57,176 bases of DNA, from the IMG/VR virus record IMGVR_UViG_646564533_000015, positions 1 to 57,176 of that record; one strand, written 5' to 3'. Position numbers: made by a program. The DNA is from a virus. Lineage: Duplodnaviria; Heunggongvirae; Uroviricota; Caudoviricetes. Shown here in pieces: positions 34,540 to 37,500 of the stretch (position 1 is its first letter; every line of letters begins with the position of its first letter).

Positions 34540-37500
34540 GATAATATATTGACAGGCATCATTGCTGTCTGTGAAAAATAAGTCTCTACAAACATATAAG
34601 GCCTTTTAGCCAGCGTCTTCTTTCAGGTCAGTCGCTGGCTTTTTTTATTATGCTGCCGGTGCATTTATCTCCAGCACCAGACTTTCTATCTCAACGCCAT
34701 ACGCTGCATTTTTTGTAATATCCGTCAGCGTCAGCGCATTCAGTCCCAGTGTCAGACTGTCTTTTATAACCTGGAATGCCTGGCCAGCCACTCCATTCAG
34801 TTTCGGAGTAACCGTGGCACTGCCGGCGGTGAACACCAGCTCCAGCGTCTGCCAGTCGTTACCGTAATCGCCGAACTCCCCCAGCTTCGTGTTTCCGGCT
34901 TTCCTGTGATGCATCAGATTCACTCTGCCGTCAGTGGTCTGAGTGAAGTACGACATCAGGAACGGATTACCGGTACCCGTCATCGCCACACCATCAGGAA
35001 CGGGAGCATCCGTATACAGATAAATCCCCAGCCCGAACTGATTGTTGGTCAGTGCGCCTGACAGGCGGAACTTACAGGTCAGTCTGCCGCCCTGTGTCAG
35101 CAGGGTAATTGCGTCATCCACCGGATGCGTCAGGGACCAGGTTTTATTGCTCTGCTTGGTGATCTTAAATACACCATCTGACAACTGAATTCCGCCATCC
35201 TTAATGCTCCAGCCCTGCGCAGCAGCCTCTCCGGCTGCCGGCAGCAGGGAGATTGTGCGAACGGACGTATCTGCAGACGGACCCGATGGCGTGTTGCCGC
35301 CGGGCGAGGGTTTGATTTCCGGTGCCTTACCACTGATGAAGGCTGAGGTGCGCCCGGCTGCGTTCAGAATAGCGGTTGCCAGACGATCCGGAATAATGCT
35401 CCTGCGCGCCCATGAACTGAAATGTGTCGGGCGGTTTGATGATACCTGGTTTCCATTCGTTCTCGATGCCGCACCGTAATATCCTGATGCCGGAATATCC
35501 GGATCTTCTGCCGGCGCGTTAGTGGCGGTATTGACGCCGTTACCGTCTGTCATGAAGGGCACAAAATAAACGCCCTCACTCTCCCTGTTTTTGTACGCCC
35601 CGTAAATGGTGTTGTACTGCGTGCCGTAGGTGTTTTTCCAGTAATACGTCGTGTCACCACAAATCCACGGCACATTTACAGCACTGCCACCATGACACTG
35701 CGCGTTAAACACAGTGAGGTCAGCACGAAACTGCTTCAGCATGGCTGTAAACAGCGCAGGTTGCTGTGCGTAGGTGGCGGCGCTCATGTCAAACTCTCCC
35801 TGCATCCAGCACACCGCCAGCAACACATTTTTCGGGTTCTTCTGTAATGCAGCTTTAGTGCGCGCAATCAGGTCCTGATATAACGGTTTACCCACACCCC
35901 AGCGCGCCGAATCCTGGCTGGCCCCCGCGTCCGCACTGAATGTCCCCTCCGCGCCCTGGGTGAATGCCGAACCACCACGACAGCATGGTACCAGCAGGAT
36001 CCCCGCGTTATTCGGGATATACGGAAGCAGTTTTTTGGCAATATGTAAGCCCTGGCCGACACAGCCGTACTGCCCTTTGCTCAGGTCTGCCTTCGGATGA
36101 TTCAGCGTACTCATATCCTGCACATCATGCAGGCAGTGGTCGGCCGGAATAATATCGTTATATCTGCAGGCAGCCCCACCCGGCGTAACTGTACTGCGGC
36201 GCGCCAGCTGTTTAATGCGCGGATCCGGAGCATCGTATGAATCCGGCAGCGGAAGCCCTTCACCGTAAGCCATGGCATTGGACTGCCCGGCCAGTACGAT
36301 GACGTAGTACCAATCCGGCTCAGTTGCACCACTGACCACCACATCACCTTCTGCTGTAATCGCCTGCATCAGGGTATAAGGGGTTATGGCCACCGGACTA
36401 CCAAACGGCTGCCAGCCCTCTTTCAGTTTGTGTGTCAGCTTTTCCGCAAGGTCTGACGGCGACGCCGCCCTGACAACATCATAATGTTTAAATGTCATTA
36501 TTCCTCCCGGCCGGGATAGTGTATTAAATCAGATATGGAGTGGGCTGTAGTCCGGAAGCCTGAATGACACACGGGGACTACAGCCCAAGAAATGAAAAAA
36601 GGCCACGCAGTTGCGCAGCCTGATAAACCCTGGTTAAAATCCACACGATAACAACACAACAATATCAGTATCTCATGCTATTGCCCGAACCCATTCGGGC
36701 ATTTTTTACCCATAAAAAATGCCCCTCCGGAGAGGGGCATGTTTGCATGCACATTCTTTTTCTTGCATGGTGCCGGGTGCCTCCCGGTGAATTCAGTATC
36801 AGCACCTGAATCCGCGATTATCCCATATACCTGGTTGCTGATCGCCCCTCCGCACAGGGGGATTCACCATGCAGAAGTGTTTTTAATAAACAGCAAACAA
36901 AAAAATCAAGCATTATGCAGGCTGTTTCTTTTTATCACCGGCCACAGCAATACCACAATGCCGCAGACCAGCACCCCATCCGCCAGCACCGACATGATTC
37001 TGCTGGTGAAATCCACCATCACCACCAGAAACAGCAGGAGTGCAGCCACAGCCAGGCGCAGTTTTACCGTCACAGGTGATTCTCCAGACGAAGACCCAGA
37101 ACACCGGCAATCTCTTCCAGCACCTTGCGCTCTTCCGGCTCAATTTCGCCGTCTGCCTCCGCAATGGCCACCGCCACATCCAGCACATCTTCCGCTTCAC
37201 GCGTATCGTGTTTCACATCCTCAATCTCGCGTAACGCGGCACGACGACCAATTTTAAAATTGGTATCCAGCTGACCGATAATGGTTGCGCTAATCGCATT
37301 AATTTCCGAGGTAAACGCAGACAACGCAGGCTGATTACGTAAGACCTGTTCGATCTTCGCTTTCTCGGATGCCTCGCATTCACCATCTGCATAGGCCACC
37401 AGGTATGCAGCGTTAATCACCGCCTGTGCCAGATCGCGTTTCTCAAACTTTTTAATTTCCGCTGCCGCTCTGCGGGTTTTCTTTTTGAAGATTCCAAACA

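Follow-up and report, generated by a model that had tools for sequence, protein, structure and literature searches.

The nanS-p leader and its hairpin

IMG/VR record IMGVR_UViG_646564533_000015, a caudoviricete sequence of 57,176 nucleotides that was analysed at full length (the window), is a lambdoid prophage adjoining ssrA and about the same as prophage Sp17 of Escherichia coli Sakai. Its late operon lies on the minus strand in the order Q, three tRNAs, a TerB-domain cargo gene, a small RNA (sRNA) of the STnc100 family and nanS-p. Genes of the latter kind follow directly on stx or other cargo (TerB in this case) and precede the lysis genes; they are present in multiple copies in enterohaemorrhagic E. 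coli and allow lysogens to use O-acetylated sialic acids. The subject of this analysis is a hairpin in the leader of nanS-p, between the nearest upstream terminator, which we call T2, and the Shine-Dalgarno (SD) sequence. The features of the locus are as follows.

36541..36587, minus strand: the hairpin, with 13 perfect base pairs; read in the nanS-p sense, 5' arm 36587-36575, loop 36574-36554 and 3' arm 36553-36541
36590..36621, minus strand: intrinsic terminator T2, called by terminator scans; stem-loop AGGCTGCGCAACTGCGTGGCCT at 36621-36600 and U-tract TTTTTTCATT at 36599-36590
36505..36516, minus strand: a small stem, TCCC/GGGA, with a variable loop of 4-5 nt, from the consensus fold of nine leaders
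34648..36498, minus strand: nanS-p, an open reading frame (ORF) of 616 amino acids with DUF1737, SASA esterase and DUF6645 domains
37070-37573, minus strand: the TerB-domain cargo gene, from a domain match
between Q and the TerB cargo, minus strand: tRNA-Met, tRNA-Arg and tRNA-Arg, from tRNA finding
38364-38846, minus strand: the Q antiterminator, from Pfam PF06530

The 616-codon ORF was assigned to nanS-p because it carries all three domains. Upstream of it, the repeat finder returned two 13-nt arms of 100% complementarity, TGGGCTGTAGTCC (36541-36553) and GGACTACAGCCCA (36575-36587), separated by 21 nt. A preliminary description of this DNA had recorded a perfect 12-bp inverted repeat with a 21-nt loop; the repeat and its loop are there as described, and the arms are in fact 13 bp long. 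It had also placed the element ~45-90 nt before the nanS-p start on the coding strand, close to the 43-89 nt that we measured from the ATG. Eight of the 13 pairs are G-C, and the 21-nt loop is pyrimidine-rich on the nanS-p sense strand. RNA folding, proposed in the same description, gave a stable structure on both strands: -28.0 kcal/mol on the minus strand (z -6.8; none of 200 shuffles equally good) and -25.2 kcal/mol on the plus strand (z -4.7). The palindrome is real and above chance. Six perfect inverted repeats of at least 12 bp with loops of at most 40 nt occur in the window, compared with 0.13 on average and at most 2 in 100 dinucleotide shuffles, and the arm sequence has no second occurrence elsewhere in the 57 kb.

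On the sense strand, the leader reads T2, a U-rich linker, the hairpin, a G-poor spacer of ~30 nt, the small stem at the SD sequence and the nanS-p start codon. T2, which was absent from the preliminary description, is the terminator nearest to the hairpin on the nanS-p strand; it ends 2 nt before the hairpin begins, and the two are conserved as one unit. The T2 pattern CTGCGCAACTGCGYGGCCTTTTT is present in at least 120 viral contigs. The linker between the two structures, UUUUUUCAUUUCUU, would be single-stranded. The 3' half of the TCCC/GGGA stem overlaps the first bases of the nanS-p SD sequence (GGGAGGA, 36508-36502), and this stem is kept with five loop variants across the leader types (GGCC, GACC, GCCA, GGAAA and GGCAA); it is possibly a translational tuning element. 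The consensus fold of nine whole leaders yields exactly these three structures: T2, the hairpin and the SD stem.

Several other readings of the leader were tried and set aside. A 54-aa ORF (36498..36662, minus strand) that starts with TTG passes through T2 and the hairpin and, ending in TAATG over the nanS-p ATG, could be coupled to nanS-p; in relatives, loop-length differences of 6-7 nt and differing start contexts break the frame. It is probably not a gene, and the hairpin itself appears not to be coding. Pairing of the loop and 3' arm (CUUCCGG) with the SD region (CCGGGAG) is possible in the window type and is not conserved in the 7888 type. Promoter scans gave no consistent -10/-35 elements for a sense promoter within or just upstream of the hairpin.

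Conservation and covariation of the stem

The 281-nt leader region matches 347 phage records and 1,602 of 5,426 complete E. coli genomes, where it occurs in up to 13 places per genome; the identities extend from 100% down to ~76%. A scan of genome contigs for other species, run once, returned five loci only. Our comparison set consisted of annotated loci downstream of stx1, stx2 and other cargo, 120 viral contigs with T2, and 80 contigs with close NanS-p N-termini. From 127 loci we obtained 35 non-redundant segments extending from T2 to the SD sequence, which together with the POCJ13 type make 36 leaders. In the minimum-energy fold of every one of them (36/36), a hairpin stands at the same position between T2 and the SD sequence. 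The hairpin is conserved in the stxB-nanS-p intergenic regions of Shiga toxin (Stx) phages, where the preliminary description had suggested looking for it. At least six types can be distinguished (window/Stx1a, Stx2a/Sp4, 7888, L068, L034 and POCJ13).

Type A, this window and Stx1a phages: perfect stem of 12-13 bp, 21-nt loop
Type B, Stx2a/933W/VT2-Sakai, Sp4 and Sp15: conserved U•U mismatch in mid-stem, 28-nt loop
Type C, phage 7888: CGG/CCG in place of TAG/CTA, and three or four G•U pairs as well
Type E, L068: four double changes and one bulge
Type F, L034: weaker stem with three mismatches, 12-nt loop
Type G, POCJ13 and SH2026Stx1: six G•U pairs

No alignment of the loops is possible from one type to another, and the stem is kept. 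In all types the loop is pyrimidine-rich (67-83%) and poor in A; the arms are spaced 12-28 nt apart in the relatives, and the stem measures 12-17 bp, the upper value being reached with G•U pairs in the 7888 type. The 3'-arm motif CCGGAC is nearly invariant across leaders, and in one leader (L020) an inserted A restores pairing beside a mismatch. A covariance model of the hairpin (R1), built from nine variants, found a single sense-strand copy in each locus and no other significant match in 372 kb. In the window, it matched 36538-36590 with 58.8 bits on the minus strand versus 21.2 bits on the plus strand. These searches gave no sign of a dispersed repeat such as a repetitive extragenic palindrome (REP), a bacterial interspersed mosaic element (BIME) or the end of a miniature inverted-repeat transposable element (MITE), with no further copies in 57 kb and a single sense match per locus in 372 kb. 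Scans against Rfam at the gathering threshold and at permissive settings placed no family on the hairpin, the only hits being Leu_leader (E = 7) and Chlorobi-1 (E = 7.3), both at chance level.

Among 26 distinct sequences, 90.9% of the stem cells hold standard pairs, compared with 16-43% when the partners are slid by 1-3 columns, in an alignment that was fitted to the covariance model and therefore somewhat favours structure. Two-sided, compensatory changes affect 5 of the 14 stem pairs, and the covariation score of 0.189 (0.163 in shuffles) was reached by none of 500 shuffles. Since the loops have diverged past alignment and pairing has been kept by compensatory and G•U changes, the hairpin is best understood as a selected RNA stem-loop; judged from these comparisons, its pairing is under selection.

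The non-Watson-Crick cells of the stem bear on the strand that is selected, as G•U pairs on the nanS-p strand only and A•C corresponds to a pair on the opposite strand only. Across 21 distinct stem states we counted 36 G•U versus 4 A•C cells, or 13 versus 4 when each combination of column and pair type was counted once (binomial P ~0.04). A mutational strand bias was rejected as the source of this excess, the adjacent coding sequence of the same loci being flat in this respect (45 sense-compatible versus 40 antisense-compatible transitions). With each strand folded independently, the sense strand was the more stable in 25 of the 36 variants and the antisense strand in 4. The POCJ13 hairpin folds only on the sense strand, where it has -22.8 kcal/mol (z -3.7); its antisense strand reaches -5.8 kcal/mol (z +1.0). 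Taken at face value, these patterns suggest that selection leans modestly, not decisively, to the nanS-p sense strand.

Loci L142-L221 carry three unrelated leaders (T2 with the hairpin; a T2-like terminator with other sequence; an AT-rich leader), and the modules are swapped exactly at the start codon. As far as sequence comparison can tell, the hairpin belongs to one leader module and not to nanS-p itself. Junctions also fall within the hairpin: in one Stx1a phage (L002) the sequence is Stx2a-like up to a point inside the 5' arm and window-like from the loop onward, and in two viral contigs (L059 and L104) homology breaks inside the hairpin. In the Stx2 phage 06-3462 (L008, 1700-3009), an inserted IS3-family element (IS629/IS1203) separates the hairpin from the nanS-p ATG. 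The nanS-p leader appears to be a rearrangement hotspot. A hairpin recurring with unrelated sequence was considered for the 2B8/E. albertii-type leaders and was dropped, the folds being weak (z -1.8 and -2.6) and inconsistent among variants.

Small RNAs around and across the hairpin

Two convergent sRNA genes, a pair already described by Tree et al. (2014; PMC4104026), lie upstream of the leader. The features relevant to them and to transcription across the hairpin on the opposite strand are the following.

36646..36707, plus strand: the anti-sRNA AgvB (Rfam RF02702, 96.5 bits)
36611-36640, plus strand: AgvB promoter, assigned by eye with no tool call; -35 TTGCGC at 36611-36616, 18-nt spacer, -10 TAAAAT at 36635-36640, transcript start at 36646
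36682-36701, plus strand: AgvB terminator stem, from the terminator scan
36708..36901, minus strand: STnc100-family sRNA, EcOnc06 of Sakai Sp17 (Rfam RF02076, 142.7 bits), with its terminator stem at 36740-36719
36492..36520, plus strand: weak promoter-like site, assigned by eye (8/12); -35 ATGTCA at 36492-36497, 17 nt, -10 GATAGT at 36515-36520
Sakai loci L136 (Sp4, 1179938-1180101) and L222 (Sp15, ~2924156-2924246), opposite to nanS-p: antisense RNA over the nanS-p leader, from peaks of Hfq cross-linking and analysis of cDNA (Hfq-CRAC)

The 5' end of AgvB agrees with the AgvB sequence in Fig. S4 of Tree et al. (2014), and its primary 5' end was mapped downstream of T2 (PMC4104026). The STnc100 homologue, on the nanS-p sense strand, is also identified by the Northern probe for EcOnc06, which maps to 36796-36830 on the plus strand of the window. 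The preliminary description had noted terminator-like hairpins at ~36683-36741. They exist, and according to the Rfam matches they are not generic structures, being the terminators of AgvB and of the STnc100 homologue. The AgvB -35 element lies inside the T2 stem, and an A-run complementary to the T2 U-tract occupies the position of an UP element; one DNA sequence (36590-36640) serves both the minus-strand terminator T2 and the plus-strand AgvB promoter. Relative to the AgvB start, the hairpin is at -59..-105. It is covered by neither family: the STnc100/PasD (RF02076) match is 120 nt away, and the AgvB and AsxR models (RF02702 and RF02703) gave nothing on 36541-36587 even at E<=10.

Weak Rfam matches to GcvB (19.5 bits, E 0.03) and OmrA-B (20.9 bits) lie on the minus strand from the STnc100 terminator to T2 (36594-36720) and end exactly at the T2 U-tract. 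This region is complementary to AgvB, which mimics GcvB; were it transcribed, the product would be an RNA like the GcvB seed, equipped with a terminator.

Table S2 of Tree et al. (2014; PMC4104026) lists three Hfq-CRAC peaks, EcOnc08, EcOnc21 (Sp4) and EcOnc42 (Sp15), with a common Northern band of ~271 nt; EcOnc08 and EcOnc21 are given as antisense to ECs_1088, the nanS-p homologue of Sp4. The Northern probe for the three is the nanS-p sense strand across T2 and therefore detects antisense RNA. When mapped on Sakai Sp4, EcOnc21 covers T2 together with the 5' arm and loop of the hairpin, and EcOnc08 covers the terminator that stands in place of AgvB. The coordinates of Table S2 appear displaced by ~+128 bp from NC_002695.2 beyond ~2.9 Mb and agree with it at 1.18 Mb, the Sakai record used here being 128 bp longer than the version in that study; coordinates from old sRNA catalogues are easily misread owing to such a shift. 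Once it is applied, the hairpin and T2 of Sp15 lie under EcOnc42, and the STnc100 homologue of Sp17 lies under EcOnc06. Two readings of the raw coordinates were dropped for this reason: EcOnc06 as a transcript over the hairpin (its probe maps to the STnc100 homologue) and EcOnc42 as a peak over the nanS-p coding start, which we do not claim.

For Sp4 and Sp15, then, antisense transcription of the hairpin and its binding by Hfq are certain. A promoter-like site for such an RNA, ATGCCA-17-GATAAT, scores 9/12 in Sp4 and Sp15 and overlaps the nanS-p ATG. Its counterpart in the window, with the -35 element over the nanS-p ATG, scores below the scanner threshold; transcription from there would begin ~13-20 nt ahead of the hairpin. 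An RNA of ~194 nt is expected from the predicted promoter, versus the observed band of ~271 nt. The hairpin thus lies under Hfq peaks catalogued in 2014 for two Sakai prophages, and the literature searched held no follow-up and no later paper characterising the EcOnc08/21/42 antisense RNA.

Proposed role of the hairpin and alternatives

We tentatively propose, at a probability of roughly 0.42, that the hairpin is a cis-acting stem-loop that the Q-antiterminated nanS-p/late transcript carries in its leader, probably a processing or stability boundary. The STnc100 terminator (36740..36719) and T2 (36621..36600) separate transcription of the cargo and sRNA from nanS-p. In a lysogen, transcription from the STnc100 promoter, from the cargo and from a leaky pR' would stop at these two sites, and the hairpin would hardly be made. 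Upon induction, Q-modified RNA polymerase would pass both terminators and the hairpin would become part of the late mRNA; we infer this read-through from the known layout of the late operon and from the induction of nanS-p (z1466) together with stx (PMC8065619). The hairpin would then most likely work at the post-transcriptional level, marking a boundary in the mRNA. With a stable hairpin on either side, the U-rich linker is predicted to be a good site for an endonuclease (RNase E) and for Hfq, and cleavage there would leave a nanS-p/late mRNA that begins with a stable stem-loop shielding its 5' end. The stem-loop may also keep the ribosome-binding region from pairing with the highly variable cargo upstream. 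This processing or stabilising role is inferred; that the hairpin is a processing structure, one of the options raised in the preliminary description, is possible on this evidence.

Several observations weigh against a sense-strand function of this kind. Of the 80 loci in which the NanS-p N-terminus is 96-100% identical to that of the window, about 20 have an AT-rich leader that lacks both T2 and the hairpin, and in about 15 a T2-like terminator is followed by unrelated, weakly folding sequence. Near-identical nanS-p genes, with N-termini of 96-98% identity, thus stand behind hairpin-less leaders, and expression of nanS-p as such can therefore do without the hairpin. In statistical terms the strand bias is modest (P ~0.04), with variants that are not independent and an alignment fitted to the model. 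The commonest relatives, of the Stx2a/Sp4 type, carry the mid-stem U•U mismatch and fold about equally well on both strands. Finally, the Hfq-bound antisense RNA of Sakai Sp4 and Sp15 (Tree et al. 2014) covers the hairpin region, and the few antisense-compatible stem changes are in Sp4-like loci.

The last two observations lead to an alternative in which the hairpin works on the plus strand, as a structural and Hfq-binding module of a cis-antisense sRNA (EcOnc08/21/42) that extends from near or inside the nanS-p start across the hairpin and T2 to a terminator. Prophages of the AgvB type, such as the window, would hold that RNA or a relic of it, its 3' part replaced by AgvB with a promoter built into T2. 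The Hfq-CRAC peaks with their ~271-nt band, two of which (EcOnc21 and EcOnc42) map onto the hairpin and T2, speak for it, as do the sense-strand Northern probe over T2, the 9/12 promoter-like site over the nanS-p ATG in Sp4 and Sp15, the clustering in Sp4-like loci of the few antisense-compatible stem changes, and an antisense loop that is purine-rich with A-R-N-type Hfq motifs. We nevertheless regard this alternative as rather unlikely. In window-type prophages the mapped primary 5' end of AgvB is downstream of T2 (PMC4104026), so that the hairpin lies upstream of that promoter; the window's own promoter-like site is the weaker one (8/12, below the scanner threshold); G•U cells favour the sense strand by 36:4; the antisense strand of the POCJ13 and 7888 types hardly folds; and the predicted promoter accounts for ~194 nt and not for ~271 nt. 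The sense and antisense readings are not mutually exclusive. A more far-reaching version, which we consider doubtful, would see in T2 together with the hairpin the conserved core of EcOnc08/21/42, as an uncharacterised cis-antisense RNA that binds Hfq, begins at or inside the start region of nanS-p and sets the level of NanS-p esterase in the non-lysing lysogen, the anti-sRNA of AgvB/AsxR-type prophages having evolved through a new promoter inside T2. If true, the same 100 nt would be sense terminator, sense leader hairpin, antisense sRNA body and anti-sRNA promoter.

Readings without a function in RNA, or with an ordinary one in termination, fit the comparisons less well. The hairpin could be a relic that has no function today, such as a stem left by the decay of a moron terminator, carried along between T2 with the AgvB promoter and the nanS-p ribosome-binding site, its arms serving as crossover points. 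The junction inside the 5' arm of L002, the breaks of homology in L059 and L104, nanS-p genes that work behind hairpin-less leaders and the U-rich stretch UCCUUAUUUUAC that follows the Stx2a-type stem are all compatible with such a history. What makes it unlikely is that loops too diverged to align are accompanied by pairing kept through compensatory and G•U changes, and that the A insertion of L020 restores pairing next to a mismatch; neither is expected without selection on structure. The protein-binding palindrome suggested by the preliminary description, as an operator for a dimeric protein at the AgvB promoter (centre at ~-82) or at nanS-p, would suit the perfect arms of the window, their position upstream of the AgvB promoter and the near-invariant CCGGAC of the 3' arm. 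It is disfavoured by the sequence comparisons and very unlikely, because an arm distance of 12-28 nt, bulges, the central mismatch (T•T in DNA, U•U in RNA) and many one-sided transitions, including the asymmetric G•U changes, break two-fold symmetry, the 13-bp arms are long for half-sites, and the window has no further copies. Also hardly tenable is the preliminary suggestion of a terminator between the TerB cargo transcript and nanS-p. The hairpin does stand between the two, and its stem (13 bp, 8 G-C pairs) is stable and GC-rich, in the range of about 5-14 bp expected of an intrinsic terminator, but the loop has 21 nt (12-28 in relatives) instead of about 3-8 nt, and a U/T-run, expected 0-2 nt past the stem, follows on neither strand (the minus strand continues with CTCCATATCTGA, the plus strand with AGAAATGAAAAA). 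Two terminator scans skip it while finding three true terminators within 200 nt, and with T2 directly upstream a polymerase that is not antiterminated would rarely arrive.

Leader and 5'-terminal stem-loops that stabilise bacterial mRNAs, of which ompA is the type, act through the dependence of RNase E on the 5' end. The nanS-p hairpin resembles them in being a stable stem-loop before an unstructured, A/U-rich and G-poor spacer and a ribosome-binding site, with structure conserved and not sequence. It differs in that it would become 5'-terminal only after the hypothetical cleavage of the linker (36588-36599), and in its unusually large (21-28 nt), pyrimidine-rich loop. Hairpins processed by RNase III in polycistronic phage mRNAs, such as the T7 R1.1 type and the lambda sib and N-leader sites, usually have ~20 bp. 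The present element is likewise intergenic in a long phage transcript and could separate mRNA segments, but its stem of 13 bp (12-17 in relatives, and at most 17 with G•U pairs in the 7888 type) falls short of those two helical turns, and the characteristic internal-loop architecture is missing. With the terminators of its own locus, the STnc100 terminator and T2, it has in common a GC-rich hairpin, the strand, a place within 60-200 nt of them and membership of the same conserved module; it lacks their U-tract, has a long loop and is passed over by the terminator scan.

The closest described transcripts are sRNAs. EcOnc08/21/42 (PMC4104026) covers the homologous T2-hairpin segment and has Hfq cross-links on it; it is on the opposite strand, the pairing favours the sense strand, and in the AgvB-type (Sp17-like) window another sRNA, which has a promoter of its own, stands where its 3' part would be. 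The convergent pair of AgvB/AsxR and STnc100/EcOnc27/PasD at the moron site (RF02702, RF02703 and RF02076) is adjacent, shares the intergenic region and is co-inherited, while the hairpin is outside both Rfam matches (36646-36707 and 36708-36901). The hairpin is not described in PMC4104026 or in bioRxiv 10.64898/2026.05.13.724894, and it is neither named nor analysed in the literature found on the nanS-p promoter and processing, 933W L0105, STnc100 and Term-seq. As a conserved leader stem-loop it is a modest, ordinary kind of regulatory element in an interesting place, and it changes no major picture. Its module (terminator, hairpin and SD stem) offers a concrete handle on nanS-p expression relative to the toxin and lysis genes, and the anatomy of a much-studied intergenic region is clarified by an AgvB promoter embedded in a terminator of the opposite strand.

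A few features elsewhere in the prophage were recorded in passing. Immediately downstream of nanS-p are the transposase ORFs (orfA/orfB, IS629-like) of an IS3-family element (33318-34531, plus strand; 33350-33472), whose 5' end contains an Rfam isrC match of 150 bits. Further known phage RNAs found with Rfam are the C4 antisense RNA with its a1/b1 targets, isrK and the lambda cIII thermoregulator (41142-41342, minus strand; 48004-48062, plus strand). Other perfect inverted repeats of the window include a three-arm set based on AAATGTTAAC (28462-28515), a 13-bp stem with a 6-nt loop (13287-13318) and, just past the tmRNA gene, a 12-bp stem with A5/T5 flanks (1181-1212) that is probably the tmRNA terminator.

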